A stretch of DNA of 36,875 nt from a virus (IMGVR_UViG_2700989507_000031); one strand, 5' to 3'. Shown: positions 2,785-36,875, numbered from the stretch's first letter. The notes: generated by a model not told the origin, from the sequence alone. Numbers and translations: made by a program.

Positions 2785-3288
2785 GGCCGCAGCGAGGCTG
2801 CACCGCAGACCCGCGAAGAAGTCAGCCGCGATATCCGCACCCTGGGCGATATTCAGCGAGAGGCGCTGCGGCTGGAAACGGCGATGAATGATGAAGTGGC
2901 AGAAATCACCGCCCGTTATACGCCGCAGATTGAAAACCTTAAAAAAGAAATCAAAGTGCTTTTTAAGGGGATTCAGGACTGGTGCAAAACCAACCGAGAT
3001 GAGCTGACGAACGGCGGCAAAACCAAAACAGCCAATCTGACCACCGGAACGGTGTCATGGCGACTGGGGAATCCATCATGCAGCGTCAGTCGTGATGTTG
3101 AAGGCGTGATTGAAATGCTGCGCCGTATGGGGCTTGAGCGATTCATCCGCACGAAAGAGGAAGTGAACAAGGAAGCGGTCCTGGCGGAGCCGGATGCAGT
3201 GAAAGGCATTGCCGGTATTAAGGTGAATAAAGGCGCTGAAAGTTTTTATGTCGAGCCTTTTGAACAGGACGCCGGACTGAATAAATAA
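2785..3288 (+). CDS. gam: Host-nuclease inhibitor Gam-like protein; 5' end lost in gap
   Basis: Frame is open back to the gap (APQTREEVSRDIRTLGDIQREALRLETAMNDE...). 'WCKTNRDELTNGGKTKTANLTTGTVSWR', 'RFIRTKEEVNKEAVL' and 'PFEQDAGL' match Mu Gam as recalled. Confidence 0.8.
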   Translation, partial: GRSEAAPQTREEVSRDIRTLGDIQREALRLETAMNDEVAEITARYTPQIENLKKEIKVLFKGIQDWCKTNRDELTNGGKTKTANLTTGTVSWRLGNPSCSVSRDVEGVIEMLRRMGLERFIRTKEEVNKEAVLAEPDAVKGIAGIKVNKGAESFYVEPFEQDAGLNK

Positions 3289-3385
3289 CACCGCATTAAA
3301 TCTTTAAATATCACATCGTTTTAAGTATGGCGCTCGCGTCAGGGGACTGCCTGCGCCTGTAAACTGAAAATAAGGAACAGGATAT

Positions 3386-3928
3386 ATGGCATATTTTTAT
3401 TTCAAATTAGACCGTGTGCAGACAAATAAATATTTCACCAAATATCAACAGACTGTTTTACCGCTACGCAACAGTATTCTTCGGGCATTACTGAAAAATA
3501 CAGGCGCTGCCGGATTGCGCTTAAAGCCGTTTGCCATGGACGTAATCAGTGAGTTTTATTTTTCTGGTGCTCTGCCTGCGGGCTGGCGTAAGCGCGATGA
3601 TGTGGCTTTTATCGGGGACGGACCGTGCTTTATTGCCAGACCTGATGAGTCATGCCCTGAAGGACCGGCGATTGCCGCAATGATTGAAGCCGCTGAACGC
3701 GAGTTAAGAAAGCGTCCTGATTTCCTTGTCTGGCTCTGTGAAAAGCTGGGGGTAATGAGAATCCCCTCCATGTTTAACACGGACTCCTGGTGGACCCCGT
3801 CGCTCTCCCGTGATGCCCTGTGCGTGGTGTTTAAAGTAGGCGCTTATGGCAGGGAAATAAAAGGGTGTATTCCTGAAGAATGCCAGGAAATTAAACATTC
3901 TGAATATGTGGCGCTGACGGAGGAATAA
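3386..3928 (+). CDS. Early-region hypothetical protein (180 aa)
   Basis: ORF with SD-like 'aaggaacagg' upstream; first of a tandem array of small genes between gam and gemA. No family recognised. Confidence 0.5.
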   Translation: MAYFYFKLDRVQTNKYFTKYQQTVLPLRNSILRALLKNTGAAGLRLKPFAMDVISEFYFSGALPAGWRKRDDVAFIGDGPCFIARPDESCPEGPAIAAMIEAAERELRKRPDFLVWLCEKLGVMRIPSMFNTDSWWTPSLSRDALCVVFKVGAYGREIKGCIPEECQEIKHSEYVALTEE

Positions 3929-3931
3929 TTC

Positions 3932-4465
3932 ATGATTGATGCAAAAGTGCTTGAAGGGGTTAAAAACTGGCTGAGTATTTACGGGCGTCTGACCTGCGGC
4001 ATTCTGGCTGAAAAAATGAATATGCCGCCATCCTCGATGGTTTATTTTCTGCGTGATGCGGTCGATGCCGGGGTGCTGACGGAATGTAACGGTTTTTATG
4101 ATATTCCGCGTCCCCGCCCGGTGCAGCCGGTTCGTCGCAAATGCAGCCAGGAAGGTGCGGCTGATGATGTTCAGTGGTGCAGCTTCAGAAAGTCCCTGCC
4201 GTGGATTGAGGGGCATGATATTCCGTCGATGGCGTGGGAATTTGCTCAGGGCGTACTGACCTGCGAAACCGTTTATGTGGTGGCTGAAGTTGATGAGCAG
4301 GCCATGAAAGAAGGCGTGCCCCAGTTTGTGATGGCGTATATCGACATTCGCCTGGGTGTCATTATCTGCGGTTTAAGCGGCTGGAATATCACCGAACATG
4401 TTCTGCGTTACCTGATTGTTGACCGGACGGCTGCGCCTGCCGGGATATCTGCGGAGGTGGCGTAA
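3932..4465 (+). CDS. Early-region hypothetical protein (177 aa), possible N-terminal winged-helix
   Basis: SD 'ggagg' upstream; starts 4 nt after the previous stop. Confidence 0.5.
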   Translation: MIDAKVLEGVKNWLSIYGRLTCGILAEKMNMPPSSMVYFLRDAVDAGVLTECNGFYDIPRPRPVQPVRRKCSQEGAADDVQWCSFRKSLPWIEGHDIPSMAWEFAQGVLTCETVYVVAEVDEQAMKEGVPQFVMAYIDIRLGVIICGLSGWNITEHVLRYLIVDRTAAPAGISAEVA

Positions 4466-4980
4466 TGTTCTTTAAAACATCAAACCCTTCCGCGCTGGCC
4501 GCGTGGAAAAAATATCAGCAGGACTGCCAGAAAGTTAAGGATGAGGCAAAACGCCTTGAGGCCGTGCTGAATGTTGCGTGCCGGTCGGTATTTGTATCCG
4601 GTATCAGTGGCTTTTGTTTTAAAGGGCTGCGCTTTATGGATGACAAATATCCTTTTCATCGCGACTTATGGCGAAAACCGACTGCGTCGAATGGCTGGAG
4701 CTGCACACCGCGCACATCACGTATTCCCAAAGCCCTGCGCGTTGCCTCTGACGAACTTAACAGTCTGTGGCGTGAATATTCGCCCGTCACGTATGCCAGA
4801 ACCGATGCCCTGTTGTTCTGGCTGGGCATTGACTTTTCAGCAATATTGCATGGTCCCGTGAAGTGGTTCTGCGTTGACGATGTTATTTACCTTCAGTGCG
4901 AAGATGATTCCGCAAAACGGAAAATGACCGAAATTCTGTCTGATGAGTTTTATGCTGCTGAAAAGCGAGTCAGGGGGTGA
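4465..4980 (+). CDS. Early-region hypothetical protein (171 aa)
   Basis: ATG overlaps the upstream stop (taATG); SD 'ggaggtgg'. Confidence 0.5.
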   Translation: MFFKTSNPSALAAWKKYQQDCQKVKDEAKRLEAVLNVACRSVFVSGISGFCFKGLRFMDDKYPFHRDLWRKPTASNGWSCTPRTSRIPKALRVASDELNSLWREYSPVTYARTDALLFWLGIDFSAILHGPVKWFCVDDVIYLQCEDDSAKRKMTEILSDEFYAAEKRVRG

Positions 4981-4983
4981 TGT

Positions 4984-5535
4984 ATGATGATTTTACAACC
5001 CATGGGGCGAAAAGGCCGTGCACCCGCTCATGTCCGTGCGTGGACACCTGAAGAAGATGCACTGCTGATTGCGCTTTATCCATCCACCCCGGTTAAGGAT
5101 ATTGCTGTCAGGGTAAAAAGAAGTTTCTGGGGTGTACATAACCGGATTGTTTTATTACGCGGTACTTACCCGGAGTTGCTCAAATGCAAACGTCCAAGAT
5201 TTAAACATGATGAAGATAAATTTATCCGAAAAAATGCCAGAACGATGACCGGTAAGCAAATAGGAGAATATCTGGGGCGAGACCGGGATTCTGTCCACAA
5301 ACGGGCGCGATATATTGGCGTAAGCATGAAAAAATACGGAGAGTTGCTGCCCTTCACCCGTATACCTGATGATGATGTTCATCTTATTCGTGAATTACGG
5401 GATGCTGAATCACCACGACGTCTTACCTTCCGGGAAATAGGCGAGAAATTTGAATTATCCGAGAGTACGGTGAATTTTATTTATCACCATCGCCGGACTG
5501 CCGAAGATGTTGTATTACGGGAGTTAATGCCATGA
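4984..5535 (+). CDS. Early-region protein with three tandem HTH-like repeats (183 aa)
   Basis: Three internally similar ~45-aa segments ('WTPEEDALLIALYPSTPVKDIAVRV', 'TGKQIGEYLGRDRDSVHKRARYIG', 'TFREIGEKFELSESTVNFIYHHRR'); SD 'aggggg'. Confidence 0.5.
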   Translation: MMILQPMGRKGRAPAHVRAWTPEEDALLIALYPSTPVKDIAVRVKRSFWGVHNRIVLLRGTYPELLKCKRPRFKHDEDKFIRKNARTMTGKQIGEYLGRDRDSVHKRARYIGVSMKKYGELLPFTRIPDDDVHLIRELRDAESPRRLTFREIGEKFELSESTVNFIYHHRRTAEDVVLRELMP

Positions 5536-5843
5536 TAACGACATTATTTGTTGAATCAGACGAGCCTCTGGTATGTGCCGCCGGAATGTCGGTTTGTGGC
5601 GGAACGCTGACCGGTGTTTATTTCGGGGATTTGCGCGGTTATCCCTGGCATTCACTGGATGACGCATTTCCGCCTGATATGGAGGCTGTCGTGCTGATTG
5701 TTCAGTATGGTGACCAACAGGAACTGCGCATCGGCCATATGGGGTATGAAGGCTTTTTTATTGATGAAGAAACCGGAGCCTGCCTTGAAGATGAGGACGG
5801 ACAGGTGACGCACTGGTGCCATATTTCAGCTTTACCGGAATGA
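5532..5843 (+). CDS. Early-region hypothetical protein (103 aa)
   Basis: ATGA overlap with the upstream gene; SD 'gggag'. Confidence 0.45.
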   Translation: MITTLFVESDEPLVCAAGMSVCGGTLTGVYFGDLRGYPWHSLDDAFPPDMEAVVLIVQYGDQQELRIGHMGYEGFFIDEETGACLEDEDGQVTHWCHISALPE

Positions 5844-6208
5844 CGGGAGGTGAGTGCGTGAGAAGTTATATTGATAATGAAAAACTGAAGACAATCAGCG
5901 ACTGTCTTAGCTTGCTGGCAAAAATAAAAGAAACCATTGAAGAGATTAAATTTCAGCTTGAATACGAACCCTGTGGCGATGATACATGGCGTAACTCTGC
6001 CAGAAAAGCACTGGCTGTCTTTCAGAAACAACGCCGGACTGTTGAATACCGCCTTGCTGTATTGCGCCAGGAGGAAAAGGAAAGAAATATAAGACGTCAT
6101 GAACTCGTTAATGATTTTCTTGTTCGTGAATTAAAGGAGCGTGTGCCGGAGTCGGTATTTTTTGAGTGTGAGGCTGTTGCCCGTAGCAAAGCACTGGAAA
6201 CTGATTAA
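5840..6208 (+). CDS. Early-region hypothetical protein, coiled-coil-like (about 117-122 aa)
   Basis: Track ORF 5816..6208 starts with GTG inside the upstream gene. More likely starts are ATG 5840 (ATGA overlap) or GTG 5858, which follows a strong SD 'gggaggtga'. Confidence 0.45.
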   Translation: MTGGECVRSYIDNEKLKTISDCLSLLAKIKETIEEIKFQLEYEPCGDDTWRNSARKALAVFQKQRRTVEYRLAVLRQEEKERNIRRHELVNDFLVRELKERVPESVFFECEAVARSKALETD

Positions 6209-6220
6209 ACAGGCAGGTGA

Positions 6221-6556
6221 ATGATGAGTATTGAATTAAGATCGTCTTATGAATATCGTAAAATTCTCATCGCCGGAGGCATGAAACCGGAAGATGCAGA
6301 AAAAATCGTTTCTTTTATGGATAAAGAATGTGACAAACGGGATATGCCAGAAATTATTATGGATGACATGATTCTGCATTCAGCCGTAGCGTTAAGCCCG
6401 TTATGGATTGTGCATTCTCTTGCTGAAATTGCCAAAGGCACCGATAAACAGGCAGCTGTTGCTGCCCTTCAGACGCTTAATGAAATGCGTATATCTCCAC
6501 GCCCGACATTAATACATATGATTCTGTCCAGCATGGAGGATAAAGCAAATGAATAG
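6221..6556 (+). CDS. Early-region hypothetical protein (111 aa)
   Basis: SD 'aggtga' upstream of ATG. Confidence 0.45.
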   Translation: MMSIELRSSYEYRKILIAGGMKPEDAEKIVSFMDKECDKRDMPEIIMDDMILHSAVALSPLWIVHSLAEIAKGTDKQAAVAALQTLNEMRISPRPTLIHMILSSMEDKANE

Positions 6557-6746
6557 TCTACCCGCTGGATGGGCGCGGCCACTAATGGCCAGGAAGCATC
6601 ATTTTTTTAAAACAGGCGAAAATATCAGTATATGTGGACGGTGGTTATATCTGGCTCATAATCGCGAGCCGGATACATTTGAAAGCCCTGATGACTGTGC
6701 CGAATGCCGCAGAAGAGTGAATAAGGAGAAAGATAATGGACAATAG
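6549..6746 (+). CDS. Early-region small Cys-containing protein (65 aa), possible zinc ribbon
   Basis: Overlaps the upstream stop; Cys pattern 'ICGRW...DDCAECRR'. Confidence 0.4.
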   Translation: MNSLPAGWARPLMARKHHFFKTGENISICGRWLYLAHNREPDTFESPDDCAECRRRVNKEKDNGQ

Positions 6747-7032
6747 TTCTCTGTTGTTCTGGTGCTTATATATCACATCCTTTTTCGGCGCATTTGTTAT
6801 TACCCGGTGGTTATGTCGAAAAATCATCTGCTTTTTTGATAAAAGACATCCGGTTGAACGGGCGGCTGATGCGCTCATTCAGCAGGCCATTGTGTTATAT
6901 AGCGGTGAATTTTTCTGCCGGATAACAACCAGAGATGGCTGGCACATAATGATTATTCCACCAACACACCATGCCCGGTGGGATGAGGCAGAAAAGGCTT
7001 TCCATGTCCGTAAAAAGGTAAATACGGTATGA
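6736..7032 (+). CDS. Early-region small protein with N-terminal hydrophobic helix (98 aa)
   Basis: SD 'aaggag'; N-terminal 'LLFWCLYITSFFGAFVIT' is TM-like. Confidence 0.45.
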   Translation: MDNSSLLFWCLYITSFFGAFVITRWLCRKIICFFDKRHPVERAADALIQQAIVLYSGEFFCRITTRDGWHIMIIPPTHHARWDEAEKAFHVRKKVNTV

Positions 7033-7538
7033 GAGGAAAACTGATATCCGCCATTCATGTGGCAAAGCGCGAGCTTGCCCTGGATGATGAGACTTATACA
7101 TCCGCGCTGCTGGCAGCCACCGGCAAAACCAGCTGCCGGGATATGTCACCGGATGAGTTATCCCGCGTGCTGGATGTTTTCAAAAAACGCGGTTTTAAAG
7201 TGCGTCAGAACCCGGTTAACCGGGCCTTAAAACCGGGTACGGTGACCGCCAAAATTCGCGCCATCTGGAAGGTGATGCACCGGCAGGGCTTTATCACCGA
7301 TGGTGCGGAAACCGCCCTTAACCGCTGGGTGAAATCGCAGACGGCCGCGCAGAACGGCGGCGAAGGTGTGGCAAACTGGCAGTGGCTGGAGCAACACCCC
7401 GCCCTGGCCTCAGATGTGCTGGAGCGTCTCAAGCGATGGCACCGCCGCAAAATGCTGGCCGCGATGGGAATGCCCGAACGCACGCTGATGGGGTATGACG
7501 CCGTTTGCAGGCAGTATGAAAAATCACTTCCCCGTTAA
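7029..7538 (+). CDS. gemA: GemA-like protein (Mu gp16 family)
   Basis: N-terminal 'KLISAIHVAKRELALDDETYTSALL...TGKTSCRDMSPDEL' is the recalled GemA hallmark; sits directly upstream of the Mor-like gene. Confidence 0.7.
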   Translation: MRGKLISAIHVAKRELALDDETYTSALLAATGKTSCRDMSPDELSRVLDVFKKRGFKVRQNPVNRALKPGTVTAKIRAIWKVMHRQGFITDGAETALNRWVKSQTAAQNGGEGVANWQWLEQHPALASDVLERLKRWHRRKMLAAMGMPERTLMGYDAVCRQYEKSLPR

Positions 7539-7542
7539 CTCC

Positions 7543-7575
7543 AAATCCCGCCACAACGCGGGATTTTTATTTTAA
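7543..7575 (+). terminator. Rho-independent terminator-like hairpin after gemA
   Basis: 'aaatcccg' (7543-7550) pairs with 'cgggattt' (7559-7566), followed by 'ttattttaa'. Confidence 0.6.
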
Positions 7576-7607
7576 ACTTACCGGGAACGCGAGAACCGGA
7601 GGCTGAT

Positions 7608-8033
7608 ATGGCAGAAACTCAGATGAGCATGTTTGGTGGTGACAGTGAGCAACTGCACGCCCTTATCGACCGCCTTGATGACATCCCTGATGATGTTCTC
7701 AAAAAGAACTGGCCGCGGACCCTGTCAGAACTGGTTGAAGTCACCGGCGCAGAACTTCAGCGTCAGGGGATTGAGCCGGTACTGGCCGGTAAACTGGCAC
7801 GCAAGGTGGCTGCGGCTCAGGCAGCCTATATGGGCGGACGGGGTTATTACCTGCCGGTCGGGGAATCTCTCTTTGCCGAGCTGCGAAACAATGAGATATT
7901 TTCGCGCTGGGACCGGGGCGAGAAAATTGAATCCCTTCGCCGCCATTACCGGATGTCAGAAACCCAGATTTATACCGTCATACGTGAACAGCGCCGTCTG
8001 CATCTGGCAAGAACGCAACCGCCACTTTTCTGA
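7608..8033 (+). CDS. mor: Mor/C-family transcriptional activator
   Basis: 'GGRGYYLPVGESL' and C-terminal HTH-like 'EKIESLRRHYRMSETQIYTVIREQRR' parallel Mu Mor; SD 'ggagg'; lies between gemA and the lysis genes. Confidence 0.75.
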   Translation: MAETQMSMFGGDSEQLHALIDRLDDIPDDVLKKNWPRTLSELVEVTGAELQRQGIEPVLAGKLARKVAAAQAAYMGGRGYYLPVGESLFAELRNNEIFSRWDRGEKIESLRRHYRMSETQIYTVIREQRRLHLARTQPPLF

Positions 8034-8104
8034 TATTCCGCAAAGCCTGCCGCCTTTCCTTCACCGTTACGCTGACTCAGAGAACATCATGAGACAGCGT
8101 AACA

Positions 8105-8605
8105 ATGCCAAAACTCCCCGCACCACTGCGTAAAAAGCTGATTGCCCTTGTTCTGGCCGGTGCCGGGACGTTCACGATTGCCACGCATTACACCGGTTAC
8201 TGGGAAGGGAAAGAAAACTCCACGTATATCGATCCCACCGGTACACCCACCATCTGTTACGGCCATACCGGCCCGGATGTGAAACCGGGTATGACCCTGA
8301 CGGATGAAGAATGCCTGGAACTACTGGAAAAGGACATGAAATGGGCCTTTGCGGCCATTGATCGGCGTGTTCAGGTGCCGCTTACCCGTGGTCAGACTGT
8401 GGCGCTGGCTTCGTGGATCTTCTGGGCCGGTGAAACGAACTTCCGCAACTCCACGCTTCTGCGCCTGATCAATGCCGGGCAGATGCCCGCGTCCTGTAAG
8501 CAGTATATCCGCTGGATTTATTCAAAGGGGGTGAAACTCCCCGGCCTTGAGGCCCGCCGTTCGGCGGATGAATGGTTATGTCGCTACGACTTGCCGAACG
8601 TCTGA
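8105..8605 (+). CDS. SAR endolysin (phage lysozyme, Mu Lys-like)
   Basis: N-terminal Gly/Ala-rich signal-anchor 'LIALVLAGAGTFTIATHY'; catalytic E-x8-D-x5-T pattern ('WEGKENSTYIDPTGTPT'); 'ICYGHTGPDV' and 'AAIDRRVQVPLT' resemble Mu Lys. Confidence 0.85.
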   Translation: MPKLPAPLRKKLIALVLAGAGTFTIATHYTGYWEGKENSTYIDPTGTPTICYGHTGPDVKPGMTLTDEECLELLEKDMKWAFAAIDRRVQVPLTRGQTVALASWIFWAGETNFRNSTLLRLINAGQMPASCKQYIRWIYSKGVKLPGLEARRSADEWLCRYDLPNV

Positions 8606-35447: not shown

Positions 35448-35625
35448 GATCCTACCTTCACTGGATAAAAAGTCAATAAAATGATCATTTTATGATCGTT
35501 TTCACCACCTAACTCTTCGTTTTCTTTAAGTAAATAATCACCGTCCTGAATCATTGTTGATGACTTTTAAATCTATTTGTTGTATCAATTAAACAAATCG
35601 AATCGATCGTTTTTGTCGATCGATT
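35448..35625 (+). promoter_or_regulatory. AT-rich control region with five GATC sites upstream of com
   Basis: GATC at 35448, 35483, 35494, 35605 and 35618. Direct repeat 'atgatcatttt/atgatcgtttt'; palindromic pair 'aatcgatcg' (35601-35609) and 'cgatcgatt' (35617-35625). Confidence 0.45.
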
Positions 35626-35668
35626 GCATGAGAAAGGCATCAACAACAAAGCAGGAGGTTATGCGGCC

Positions 35669-35854
35669 ATGTATCGAAACATACGGTGCCGACACTGCAA
35701 TAAGCTACTGGCACGGGCCAGTTTCAGTTATCTGGAAGTAAAATGTCCGCGCTGTAAAACCCTCAATCAAATCACATCTCAGAGCGCCACAGAGCACCCC
35801 ACATACACAAGGAAATCCTGCCGTGGGGAACAAGAAACATTACTTTCAGTCTGA
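35669..35854 (+). CDS. com: Com-like zinc-finger translational regulator
   Basis: 'MYRNIRCRHCNKLLARASFSYLEVKCPRCKTL' parallels Mu Com 'IRCKNCNKLL...IRCPRCK' as recalled; SD 'aggagg' 10 nt before ATG; 3' end overlaps the downstream gene by 32 nt, as com overlaps mom in Mu. Confidence 0.7.
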   Translation: MYRNIRCRHCNKLLARASFSYLEVKCPRCKTLNQITSQSATEHPTYTRKSCRGEQETLLSV

Positions 35855-36875
35855 TAAGTCACTAACCTATGGTTCAGTATGCAGTGGTATTGAAGCTGCG
35901 ACAGTAGCCTGGAGCAATCTTGGCTGGAAAGCCAGATGGTTCAGTGAAATAGAGGACTTCCCGTCAACACTTCTTTCATATCGCTGGCCCCATATACCAA
36001 ATCTTGGTGATATGGCTTTGCTTGCGCCTCGTATCAGGGATGGGCTTATTGAAGCACCAGATATTCTTGTAGGTGGAACTCCGTGTCAGGCATTCAGTAT
36101 GTCAGGCAAACGAAAAGGCCTTTCAGATCCACGGGGGCAGTTAACACTGTCTTTTGTTGAACTGGCGAATCAGATAGATACCGTTCGGGCATCGCTCAAT
36201 AAATCCCCCTCAATAATCGTATGGGAAAACGTCACAGGAGTTTTAAGTAGCCATGACAATGCATTCGGTCATTTTCTTGGTGCGCTGGCCGGAGCAGGTT
36301 GCGCATTACAGCCAGCAAGGAAAAGATGGGCAAACGCTGGTGTTGTGTCTGGACCATCGCGTATCGTCGCCTGGCGAGTACTTGATGCCCAATATTTCGG
36401 AGTCGCCCAGGCTCGCAGAAGAGTGTTTGTTGTGGCAAGTGCTGGAAAAAGGCTCGATCCCGGAAAGGTATTATTTGAGTTCCCGCCTGTGTCGCAGGGC
36501 GATAAAAACTATTATGGAAAGAAGAAAAAATCCGAATCCCTTCTTGATCAAGGCATTGAAGGAAAATTGCACCGATATTGCCTTGAAGCATTGCCAAAAC
36601 GAACAGGCACAGTAATAGCTGGCTATAACGGAACAACTAACCAGGACATGACTATGTCTGGTGGGCTCATAGTTGAAAGAGCACCATATTCAAGGGTTCG
36701 TAGGTTGACGCCAACCGAATGCGAGAGGCTACAAGGTTTTCCCGATGGATATACAGATATTCCATGGAAAAATTCATCTCCAGCTCATCGTTATAAGGCC
36801 ATTGGAAATTCAATGCCTGTACCGGTCATGAAATGGATTGGTCGAAGAATACAGGAAGCGTTAAACGAAGTTTAA
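35823..36875 (+). CDS. DNA (cytosine-5) methyltransferase
   Basis: Motif I-like 'YGSVCSGIEAA', catalytic PCQ motif 'GGTPCQAFSMSGK', motif VI 'IIVWENVTGVL'; stop TAA ends the window. GTG start inferred from the track. Confidence 0.85.
   Translation: MGNKKHYFQSDKSLTYGSVCSGIEAATVAWSNLGWKARWFSEIEDFPSTLLSYRWPHIPNLGDMALLAPRIRDGLIEAPDILVGGTPCQAFSMSGKRKGLSDPRGQLTLSFVELANQIDTVRASLNKSPSIIVWENVTGVLSSHDNAFGHFLGALAGAGCALQPARKRWANAGVVSGPSRIVAWRVLDAQYFGVAQARRRVFVVASAGKRLDPGKVLFEFPPVSQGDKNYYGKKKKSESLLDQGIEGKLHRYCLEALPKRTGTVIAGYNGTTNQDMTMSGGLIVERAPYSRVRRLTPTECERLQGFPDGYTDIPWKNSSPAHRYKAIGNSMPVPVMKWIGRRIQEALNEV

Follow-up and report, generated by a model that had tools for sequence, protein, structure and literature searches.

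We examined if the array of small genes between gam and gemA (positions 3386-7032) in a Mu-like E. coli prophage is, as the first-pass annotation had proposed, the likeliest site for anti-restriction or host-inhibition proteins within the window, i.e., the whole 36,875-nt stretch of viral DNA analysed (IMGVR_UViG_2700989507_000031).

Nine genes between gam and gemA

The left anchor of the block is the 3' two thirds of gam (2884-3288, + strand), encoding a host-nuclease inhibitor (Pfam Phage_Mu_Gam, 7.7e-36; 58% identity to Mu Gam). The 5' portion of the gene is missing at an N-run (2713-2783), which also masks the part upstream of gam where Mu has its host-killing gene kil; a related genome has the full gam gene. 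The right anchor is gemA (7029-7538, + strand), with 44% identity to Mu GemA, a match to phrog_286 (1e-57) and the RefSeq name “gp16 family protein”. Nine ORFs, termed o1 to o9, lie between these anchors, all sharing the + strand with A and B (the early-operon strand). An SD-like motif is present at the start of each, and the successive junction gaps from o1 to o9 are +3, -1, +3, -4, +14, +15, -8 and -11 nt, followed by a 4-nt overlap of o9 and gemA; the summed length of the ORFs is 3636 nt (overlaps counted twice) for a span of 3647 nt. E. coli genomes with 99% identity across the block carry this set of nine CDSs in their RefSeq annotation, verbatim copies of all nine proteins are present in the protein collection, and identical or near-identical copies number hundreds to thousands. 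All nine matched PHROG families (2e-32 to 4e-106), eight of these being of unknown function. Pooled dN/dS for related loci was 0.09-0.35 for the nine genes, with gam at 0.10 and gemA at 0.25 for comparison. The nine ORFs are real, beyond chance, and under purifying selection. The earlier description of nine packed, same-strand ORFs was confirmed by the ORF calls, RefSeq, PHROG and dN/dS, as were the SD motifs and the abutting or overlapping junctions at all nine. The GC content of 4984-7032 is 45% vs. 54% for the whole window.

The spacer between gam and o1 contains a non-coding element with a GGCGC/GCGCC hairpin (3319-3358, + strand) that was found in 40/40 distinct spacers, Mu and SfMu included, regardless of the gene that follows. 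The spacer sequences part ways immediately 3' of GCGCCTG. Nucleotide identity of the element to that of Mu is 71-77%, compared to 56-71% for the adjoining genes; among the consensus hairpin pairs one change was compensatory and one pair was broken. The element gave no Rfam match and no promoter or terminator call. From these alignments we take the hairpin as the left edge of the variable region, and a conserved non-coding joint of this kind may offer an account of cassette swapping. At the other end, an intrinsic-terminator-like hairpin with a 9-bp stem and a T run (7543-7566, + strand) begins 5 nt past the gemA stop and is probably the end of the early transcription unit. Scanning the block for promoters and terminators gave nothing above chance (shuffled sequences) before this hairpin; the terminator-like calls within the block were weaker (5-6 bp stems, + strand) and their total was at the shuffle level. 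We infer co-transcription of the block from consensus scans only.

Families encoded by o1 to o9

The block had been described as matching no recognisable family, with profile and structure searches proposed as a check. This description did not hold for o1 (DUF5420), o2 (Gp11_C), o3 (PF26885) and o4 (HTH repeats); for the remainder it stood, beyond PHROGs of unknown function, and the searches gave eight such PHROGs in all, no PDB fold match for the two proteins modelled and no defence-family match. The product of o2 (3932-4465, 177 aa) is 68% identical to Mu gp11, is encoded upstream of a gp12 homologue as in Mu, and matches Pfam Gp11_C (PF25754; 5.7e-41, 139 bits, above the cut-off of 27) and phrog_1949 (4e-106), with a dN/dS of 0.16; by homology and position we assign it as the orthologue of Mu gp11. 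It is the sole gene of the nine present in every one of 56 distinct gam-gemA intervals (56/56), a universality that is partly an artefact because gp11 served as the search anchor. The N-terminus of o2 looks winged-helix-like by eye only, and Pfam has no HTH there. The product of o3 (4465-4980, 171 aa) is 53% identical to Mu gp12 (tblastn, 2.8e-57) and is likewise assigned by homology as its orthologue. Homologues of o3, seen in E. coli and Salmonella only, carry the precomputed label PF26885 in 46/46 cases, and the family assignment comes from these labels, the local Pfam scan of o3 having given no PF26885 match.

The product of o1 (3386-3928, 180 aa) scored under the Pfam gathering cut-off for DUF5420 (PF17457; 12.2 bits vs. 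26, E 0.17), in a colinear alignment spanning positions 84-181 of the 184-position profile. It is 38% identical over 100% of its length to a Salmonella “DUF5420 family protein” (2e-22), a profile of o1 and its relatives retrieved proteins with precomputed PF17457 labels, and the C-terminal motif IKHSEYVALTEE is common to o1 and DUF5420 members. By these comparisons we classify o1 as a divergent DUF5420 family protein. It is variable, being found in 30/56 intervals, with a divergent variant at 24%. Aligned with the extended DUF5420 family by hhalign, o3 gave a probability of 69.7% (E 4.2e-5, 158 columns), and the secondary-structure elements of o3 and o1 are in colinear order. The structure model of o1 was of high confidence yet gave no PDB fold match; the AF2 model of o3 was moderate (pLDDT 65), also with no significant PDB fold match, and therefore identity of fold between them is argued from profile and secondary structure. 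On this basis we regard o1 and o3 as probable distant paralogues. Neither shows a nuclease, ATPase or DNA-binding motif in Pfam or PDB fold searches. In other phages, neighbours of DUF5420 genes include ERF-YqaJ-SSB, NinB, a clamp-like protein and an Rv2179c-like exonuclease; in Mu-like phages the gene is always immediately after Gam, and three further contexts have no DNA-metabolism neighbour of that sort. At least one DUF5420-like partner accompanies gp11 in 44/56 intervals; gp11 occurs with both paralogues absent in 12/56, and therefore o1/o2/o3 as a module is not obligatory.

The product of o4 (4984-5535, 183 aa, pI 10) matches phrog_323, “transcriptional regulator, D5-like” (6e-58), and, below threshold, Pfam HTH and Myb families; the P2-like Citrobacter phage Shae_phiSM carries a homologue with 35% identity, annotated “DNA binding protein”, in its early operon. 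We classify o4 as a putative DNA-binding protein with three Myb/HTH-like repeats. Its two alleles are at about 97% and about 71%. The product of o5 (5532-5843, 103 aa) is very acidic (19 D+E vs. 2 K+R, pI 4.1), matches phrog_6925 (2e-52), has a dN/dS of 0.09 and is confined among phage records to this prophage lineage; similarity to DUF551 (PF04448) was under the Pfam cut-off (13 bits vs. 22, E 0.2) and is a lead only. Together, o5 and o6 make up one variable cassette. For o6 (5858-6208, 116 aa) we used the RefSeq GTG start preceded by GGAGGTG, where the mechanical ORF begins at 5816; in that longer ORF the match to phrog_6158 (2e-57, unknown function) begins at residue 15, and homologues at about 40% identity occur in siphophages Fraca (just 5' of xis-int), AsXd-1 and others. 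The protein is helical-looking by eye.

The product of o7 (start taken at 6224, mechanical ORF from 6221; 6224-6556, 110 aa) matches phrog_1988 (6e-45), is encoded in 26/56 intervals and has homologues at 34-36% identity in SfMu and Yersinia phages vB_YpM_3/5/6/23. The product of o8 (6549-6746, 65 aa; phrog_2358, 5e-34) has invariant residues H18, C29, C50 and C53, consistent with a small putative zinc-binding protein; its homologues were found in 197 phage records, the majority from virulent Pseudomonas Pbunavirus and others from E. coli/Shigella phages, where they are placed in arrays of small hypothetical genes. The product of o9 (6736-7032, 98 aa; phrog_17269, 2e-32) has its hydropathy maximum (1.82) at residues 5-23, an N-terminal hydrophobic helix that is probably a membrane anchor; it has two alleles (about 100% and about 51%) and was found in no other phage records. 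The o4, o6 and o8 families thus recur in unrelated phages among early or unannotated small genes. Searching the PDB by sequence with o2 and o4-o9 gave nothing significant.

Cassette exchange and candidate functions

The gam-gemA interval was seen in 56 distinct versions of 1.1-5.2 kb with 24 patterns of gene presence and absence, and all nine genes were together in only 3. Close relatives have gp13/gp14 homologues where o6-o9 sit here. By these comparisons the interval behaves as a cassette-exchange hotspot. A Pfam scan of nine alternative cassette proteins from the same slots gave only weak zinc-ribbon and DUF745 matches and no known counter-defence gene; one of these cassettes encodes a 61-aa two-helix membrane protein. 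As the alternative cassettes are likewise unannotated, they provide no guilt by association for anti-defence. The nine proteins themselves gave no NCBIfam match above a curated cut-off and nothing above noise with PADLOC (o4 vs. a homing-endonuclease model, 1.7e-3, via its HTH repeats; o7, 0.035), and no anti-restriction or anti-defence annotation occurred among their matches, so function is read indirectly. In view of the Mu orthologues, the absence of defence matches and the unannotated cassettes, anti-defence is a reasonable hypothesis for the variable cassettes rather than a result; counter-defence by block proteins is plausible. The proposal that this is the likeliest site for such functions was borne out as regards a variable accessory region between conserved anchors, but the block includes two plain Mu orthologues and one generic multi-HTH protein, and the window has a recognisable anti-restriction module at its right end (com and a C5-cytosine methyltransferase, 35624-36875). 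The block is a reasonable yet ordinary place to seek host-takeover or counter-defence proteins.

We favour, as fairly probable, the interpretation that the block forms the distal, non-structural portion of a Mu-type early operon in an E. coli Mu-like prophage, a mosaic of a conserved module and swappable cargo. The module would be o2 flanked by o1 and o3 of one phage-specific fold, with o4 added in this lineage; the cargo would be o5-o6, o7 and o8-o9, which phages would trade by recombining at conserved joints (the hairpin after gam and the gemA start). After induction or infection, early-promoter read-through would yield a polycistronic mRNA, A-B-...-gam-o1...o9-gemA, ending at 7543-7566, and overlapping or abutting junctions would couple translation. 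The products would be small proteins dispensable for transposition itself, which may tune the DNA transactions of both host and phage, and the physiology of the host, within the first minutes of the lytic cycle. Candidate DNA binders are o4 and possibly o2; o5 could be a protein inhibitor or a DNA mimic, and further candidates are o8, as a zinc-binding mini-protein, and o9, as a membrane-anchored protein. Host-specific functions, e.g., counter-defence, are best sought among the variable cassettes.

A rival reading, possible but doubtful, makes the block a counter-defence island in which a host system (e.g., restriction-modification, RecBCD-linked or Gabija) is the direct target of at least one of the nine proteins, the cassettes resulting from an arms race. 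Variable gene content between conserved anchors would agree with this, as would divergent alleles within slots (o9 at 51%, o4 at about 71%, the o1 variant at 24%), the occurrence of o6 and o8 in unrelated phages, within arrays of small genes that are early or unannotated, and the extreme acidity of o5, known DNA mimics being strongly acidic. The block also lies between Gam, a RecBCD antagonist, and GemA, both licensing Gabija in phage JBD30 (PMC12407980). Yet the proteins lack likeness to known anti-defence or defence-related families, the alternative cassettes are no better annotated, dN/dS within alleles (0.09-0.35) is purifying and not diversifying, and many non-defence functions are also encoded by variable small early genes. 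We are rather more hesitant about o1/o2/o3 as helpers of transpositional replication, DNA-end handling or recombination, which would make them the basis of an “arm”-type phenotype (amplified replication of Mu, which we take to have been mapped to this interval) and not of host takeover. [quoted passage not shown] The neighbourhood evidence is itself weak, DNA-metabolism genes being abundant in early operons in any case.

We consider it unlikely that DUF5420 and Mu gp12 form a single, previously unlinked, phage-restricted superfamily with a new alpha/beta fold and, at the C-terminus, an invariant acidic peptide (...IK[KH]SE[FY][IV]ALTEE), encoded beside Gam or ERF-YqaJ-SSB/NinB and modulating or inhibiting host DNA-end processing or nuclease immunity (a RecBCD/Gabija-type axis), and that at least one cassette of o5/o7/o8/o9 is in addition a new counter-defence or host-takeover protein. 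It is improbable that some of the genes, e.g., o9, are morons, i.e., lysogenic-conversion or superinfection-exclusion cargo expressed from the prophage to the benefit of the lysogen: low GC in 4984-7032 and the recurrence of small membrane proteins in the slots (o9; the 61-aa two-helix cassette) fit this, but no gene is framed by a promoter/terminator pair (calls being at shuffle level), all lie on the early-operon strand with coupled junctions, and a Mu lysogen keeps this operon repressed. A defective prophage with chance or decaying ORFs, as suggested by the assembly gap and by the frequent defects reported for E. coli O157 prophages (PMC2669165), is a most improbable source of genes having intact SD motifs at all nine starts, identical or near-identical copies by the hundreds to thousands and homologues in sequenced phages such as SfMu and Pbunavirus; the dN/dS range across all nine (0.09-0.35) effectively refutes this reading.

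Block-bearing Mu-like prophages occur in 233/5426 complete E. coli genomes (about 4%), many O157 strains included. The new elements are the gam-gemA hotspot map, the probable o1/o3 paralogy, which would link the orphan families DUF5420 and Mu gp12, the recurrence of o4/o6/o8, and the boundary hairpin. A map of conserved (gp11, gp12/DUF5420 fold, HTH protein) vs. exchangeable genes sets priorities for host-takeover and counter-defence screens; were a cassette to inhibit a defence system, it would be a useful, unsurprising addition to the catalogue.

Comparison with Mu, SfMu and temperate accessory regions

The SEE region is a type known since the 1980s. The earlier placement of the block in it was borne out: it lies between gam and gemA orthologues on the early strand, with variable content, and shares position, strand and flanks with Mu gp11-gp15 (old E10-E15). 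In common with Mu are the gp11 and gp12 counterparts (o2, o3) and the gam-distal spacer element, and the Mu genes are still annotated “hypothetical protein”, as here. Mu has five genes in about 1.9 kb with spacers, whereas the window has nine in 3.6 kb; Mu gp13, gp14 and gp15 are missing from the window (close relatives have them), and Mu is without counterparts of o1 and o4-o9. The SfMu order gam - DUF5420 (gp11) - gp11 homologue matches gam - o1 - o2, and SfMu gp14 (ORF14 in the paper) is a 34% identical homologue of o7; SfMu ORF11 and ORF14 were reported missing from Mu and D108 (PMC4406740). SfMu lacks o4, o5, o6, o8 and o9, and retains Mu gp13/gp14-type genes. The Pseudomonas Mu-like phage JBD30 has the same anchors, gam (gp13) and gemA (gp20), with several genes between by gene numbering alone, and its Gam and GemA sway the Gabija/RecBCD outcome (PMC12407980).

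The “accessory regions” of temperate phages have been mined for counter-defence genes (bioRxiv 10.1101/2023.04.06.535777), in a report where the term “Mu-like” occurs 0 times. Several members of such regions are of proven function, whereas none of the nine proteins here, nor the alternative cassettes, match a characterised member. The organization is nonetheless that of the block: the lambdoid exo-xis/b and nin regions and the P2 early operon likewise hold small, packed, fast-turnover genes between conserved anchors. Families are also held in common, with an o6 homologue by Fraca xis-int, an o4 homologue in the Shae_phiSM early operon, and a prophage where DUF5420 and DUF551 genes follow ERF-YqaJ-SSB, the same families as o1 and the o5 lead.

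Coding content of the interval between gam and gemA

The window is a transposable, Mu-like E. coli prophage that opens within the transposase A gene (7-1830), followed by B (from 1902), gam, the block, gemA, a Mor/C-family activator and lysozyme. At 99% identity the 3647-bp block occurs in chromosomal prophages of E. coli O157 and of other strains. Of 5426 complete E. coli genomes, 233 matched it, 193 of them over at least 80% of its length; the only matches in the phage collection were Mu-like insertions within two Stx-converting phage records. The first-pass annotation had placed nine genes within 3386-7032 and this was confirmed, since nine plus-strand ORFs were found: o1 (3386-3928), o2 (3932-4465), o3 (4465-4980), o4 (4984-5535), o5 (5532-5843), o6 (5858-6208), o7 (6224-6556), o8 (6549-6746) and o9 (6736-7032). 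Each of the nine starts had a Shine-Dalgarno-like motif; junction gaps ran from -11 to +15 nt among o1-o9, and o9 overlapped gemA (7029-7538) by 4 nt. RefSeq carried exactly nine "hypothetical protein" CDSs and one "gp16 family protein" over the same stretch, with starts differing only at o6 (GTG at 5858, behind GGAGGTG) and o7 (6224). All nine sequences were present verbatim in a public protein collection, mostly unnamed (o4 was sometimes called "AsnC family" or "DNA-binding protein"), and all nine matched PHROG families (2e-32 to 4e-106), eight of the nine families being of unknown function. Full-length ungapped orthologues from related loci, compared at codon level, gave pooled dN/dS values of 0.09-0.35 for each of the nine genes (0.19 for o7), relative to 0.10 for gam and 0.25 for gemA. 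Taken together, the Shine-Dalgarno motifs, RefSeq calls, verbatim proteins, PHROG matches and dN/dS values show that the ORFs are real protein-coding genes. Minus-strand ORFs at 3704-4216 and 5702-6100 were considered as genes and rejected, because RefSeq does not include them and the plus-strand ORFs that they overlap have PHROG matches and are under purifying selection.

The earlier statement that none of the proteins matched a family did not hold for o1-o4. Mu gp11 and gp12 have their orthologues here in o2 (68% identity; Pfam Gp11_C, 5.7e-41) and o3 (53% identity; the precomputed label PF26885 was on 46/46 homologues), respectively; o1 is a divergent DUF5420 protein, sub-threshold in Pfam and with 38% full-length identity to a Salmonella "DUF5420 family protein". 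The o4 protein (pI 10) has three Myb/HTH-like repeats and its PHROG match is "transcriptional regulator, D5-like"; a homologue with 35% identity, annotated "DNA binding protein", belongs to the early operon of a Citrobacter phage of P2 type, and o4 partially matched the DNA-binding regions of HNH and methylase genes from mycobacteriophages. The o5 protein is very acidic (pI 4.1; 19 D+E residues versus 2 K+R) and weakly DUF551-like. Homologues of o6, about 40% identical, occur in siphophages, the copy in phage Fraca being just upstream of xis-int, and homologues of o7 (34-36% identical) were found in SfMu and in Yersinia phages vB_YpM_3/5/6/23. The 65-aa o8 protein, in which H18, C29, C50 and C53 are invariant, was common to 197 phage records, mostly of virulent Pseudomonas Pbunavirus; o9 has a hydrophobic helix at its N-terminus.

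Cassette exchange between conserved anchors

Relatives were compared over 36 IMG/VR loci obtained via GemA and 80 obtained via a Gp11 alignment, plus Mu, SfMu and one complete E. coli prophage. Every GemA-anchored locus covering the region kept o2-o3-o4; in this set o1 was present, absent, or swapped for a 24% identical variant, o5-o6 were present or stood replaced by a 61-aa two-helix membrane protein, and o8-o9 (in some loci also o7) gave way to Mu gp13/gp14 homologues or other small ORFs. Two divergent alleles were seen for each of o4 and o9. The 79 loci with both anchors reduced to 56 distinct gam-gemA intervals of 1.1-5.2 kb, in which twelve gene families formed 24 presence/absence patterns; all nine genes occurred together in 3/56, and the shortest intervals held gam, gp11, one small gene and gemA. 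The GC content in 4984-7032 was 44.9%, below that of the window as a whole (53.8%) and of gemA (57.5%). Together these features mark the stretch between the conserved anchors as a hotspot of cassette exchange.

The IMG/VR relative L083, whose interval was the longest at 5.2 kb, had extra ORFs (L083 4538-5116, 7691-8968), one of 192 aa between gam and o1 and three (150, 104 and 166 aa) after o5; a Pfam search of these found none significant, and they indicate that the slots accept further unrelated cargo. In another IMG/VR relative, L020, IS1-like InsA/InsB ORFs (1400-2110 of that locus; identified by eye) were inserted just upstream of gemA, and o1-o9 were not detected in the 2.7 kb that this record holds upstream of gemA. 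Among species-representative genome contigs a scan with GemA gave no locus and a scan with the Gp11 alignment gave one Citrobacter locus; both families are rare among these genomes.

The 97-nt gam-o1 spacer (3289-3385) contains, directly downstream of gam, a conserved non-coding element at 3319-3358 with a GGCGC/GCGCC hairpin, of sequence TTTTAA(G/T)TATGGCGC...GCGTCAGGGGA...GCGCCTG. It was present in 40/40 distinct Mu-like spacers, Mu and SfMu included, whichever gene came next, and divergence started immediately 3' of it. Between Mu and the window the element was conserved at 71-77%, at least as well as the neighbouring genes (56-71%). A 1-nt indel between lineages changes the reading frame, so the element is non-coding; a small ORF within the spacer was likewise dismissed as a gene, its frame not being conserved. 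Across 23 sequences the hairpin had one pair with a compensatory change and one that was broken, the whole spacer folded no better than shuffles (z -0.1), and an Rfam scan of 2800-8200 gave no match. The element may represent a recombination joint for cassette exchange, or it may be a site for RNA processing or stabilisation.

Promoter-like and terminator-like calls over 2800-8200 were at the level of shuffled sequence, with one terminator excepted: a strong hairpin with a T-run at 7543-7566, 5 nt past the gemA stop, which is the region's only strong intrinsic terminator. The simplest reading, as we infer it, is one early polycistronic unit ending after gemA. The terminator separates gemA from the Mor-family gene (7608-8033), whose product was 39% identical to Mu C versus 27% to Mu Mor, with the lysozyme gene directly next; there therefore seems to be a single Mor/C-type activator, and an early/middle boundary unlike that of Mu.

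Probable relationship of the DUF5420 and gp12 proteins

A pairwise BLASTP comparison gave no significant match between o1 and o3, and hhalign of a shallow o1 alignment (7 sequences) to gp12 was non-significant as well (Prob 0.1%). The relationship was seen only once the DUF5420 alignment included distant members, when hhalign aligned the gp12 family to it end-to-end over 158 columns (Prob 69.7%, E 4.2e-5); the predicted models of o1 and o3 also had their secondary-structure elements in the same order. The profile alignment and models are suggestive rather than proof that o1 and o3 are, as is probable, distant paralogues on either side of gp11. At least one DUF5420-like gene adjoined gp11 in 44/56 intervals, with none in 12/56. 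A more distant Mu-like phage (a Logan contig, L119) has the order gam, DUF5420, Gp11_C and an o4-type Myb-like gene, without a gp12 homologue, a gene set that fits o1-type and o3-type proteins being interchangeable paralogues. A full HMMER pass of the DUF5420 profile over 1.84 billion cluster representatives gave only 30 proteins at E <=1e-3, which makes this a small family and one that appears confined to phages. The C-terminal ALTEE peptide of DUF5420 is invariant.

Candidate roles and comparison with known systems

The view that the block encodes uncharacterised anti-restriction or host-inhibition proteins was upheld in part: the genes are real, common and uncharacterised, and none of the nine proteins could be tied to a characterised activity. 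NCBIfam and PADLOC searches of the nine proteins returned nothing, and PDB sequence and profile searches with o2 and o4-o9 gave chance-level matches only; a match of o5 to "gp84" (PDB, E 0.46) did not stand up to inspection. The cassettes that fill these slots in relatives were no better annotated, and literature searches on DUF5420, the RefSeq accessions of o1-o5 and o7, Mu gp11-gp14 and "amplified replication of Mu" found nothing relevant. The earlier ranking of the block as the window's likeliest site of anti-restriction functions needs qualifying on two counts. The recognisable module of this kind is at the right end (35624-36875), where a Com zinc-ribbon gene (Pfam Zn_ribbon_Com, 1e-12) precedes a C5-cytosine DNA methyltransferase gene (DNA_methylase, 1.6e-42), and five small early genes upstream of gam are hidden by a run of N. 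At the position of the com-methyltransferase pair an otherwise near-identical O157 prophage has com-mom, which suggests an exchange of the DNA-modification (anti-restriction) module; the end of the methyltransferase ORF coincides exactly with the window end. The 71 N (2713-2783) break the 3' end of B and replace about 1.3 kb relative to the 99% identical prophage in NZ_CP044145, in which this stretch carries the last part of B, the 5' third of gam and, where Mu has kil-gp9, five small hypothetical genes of 73-97 aa; the early region of the window is therefore incomplete and its "gam" ORF at 2884 is truncated.

We consider it fairly probable that the block is an accessory region of the early operon in two parts, a conserved module and exchangeable cargo. 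The module would comprise gp11 with the DUF5420-fold proteins, plus the HTH protein in this lineage, and the cargo (o5-o6, o7 and o8-o9) would tune host and DNA transactions soon after lytic growth begins. The literature supports the general picture: Gam and GemA of JBD30, a Mu-like phage of Pseudomonas, both license Gabija targeting (PMC12407980). A narrower reading, held tentatively, is that one cassette or more encodes a protein acting directly in counter-defence. Outside Mu-like phages, DUF5420 genes follow ERF-YqaJ-SSB, NinB and a clamp-like protein and precede an Rv2179c-like exonuclease, and they also occur within plain small-gene blocks; a role of the conserved module in replication or DNA-end handling is a second narrower reading, rated slightly below counter-defence and not mutually exclusive with it. 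Moron or exclusion functions are unlikely for genes that read most simply as part of the early unit, and junk ORFs, with purifying selection on every gene, are unlikely in the extreme.

Returning to the two-part accessory region, the block is a known kind of system, the variable accessory region of a temperate-phage early operon, and holds nothing surprising to a specialist. What is modestly new is the conserved joint, the mosaicism now put in numbers, and a probable link between DUF5420 and gp12, with a fold that matches no solved structure; the nine genes are a sensible target for functional screens. The closest known system is the Mu gp11-gp15 interval, which shares the anchors, the first two families and the spacer element but differs in cargo, seven of the block genes being absent from Mu and Mu gp13-15 being absent from the block. 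SfMu is intermediate between the two, with a DUF5420 gene right after gam, in the same slot as o1.
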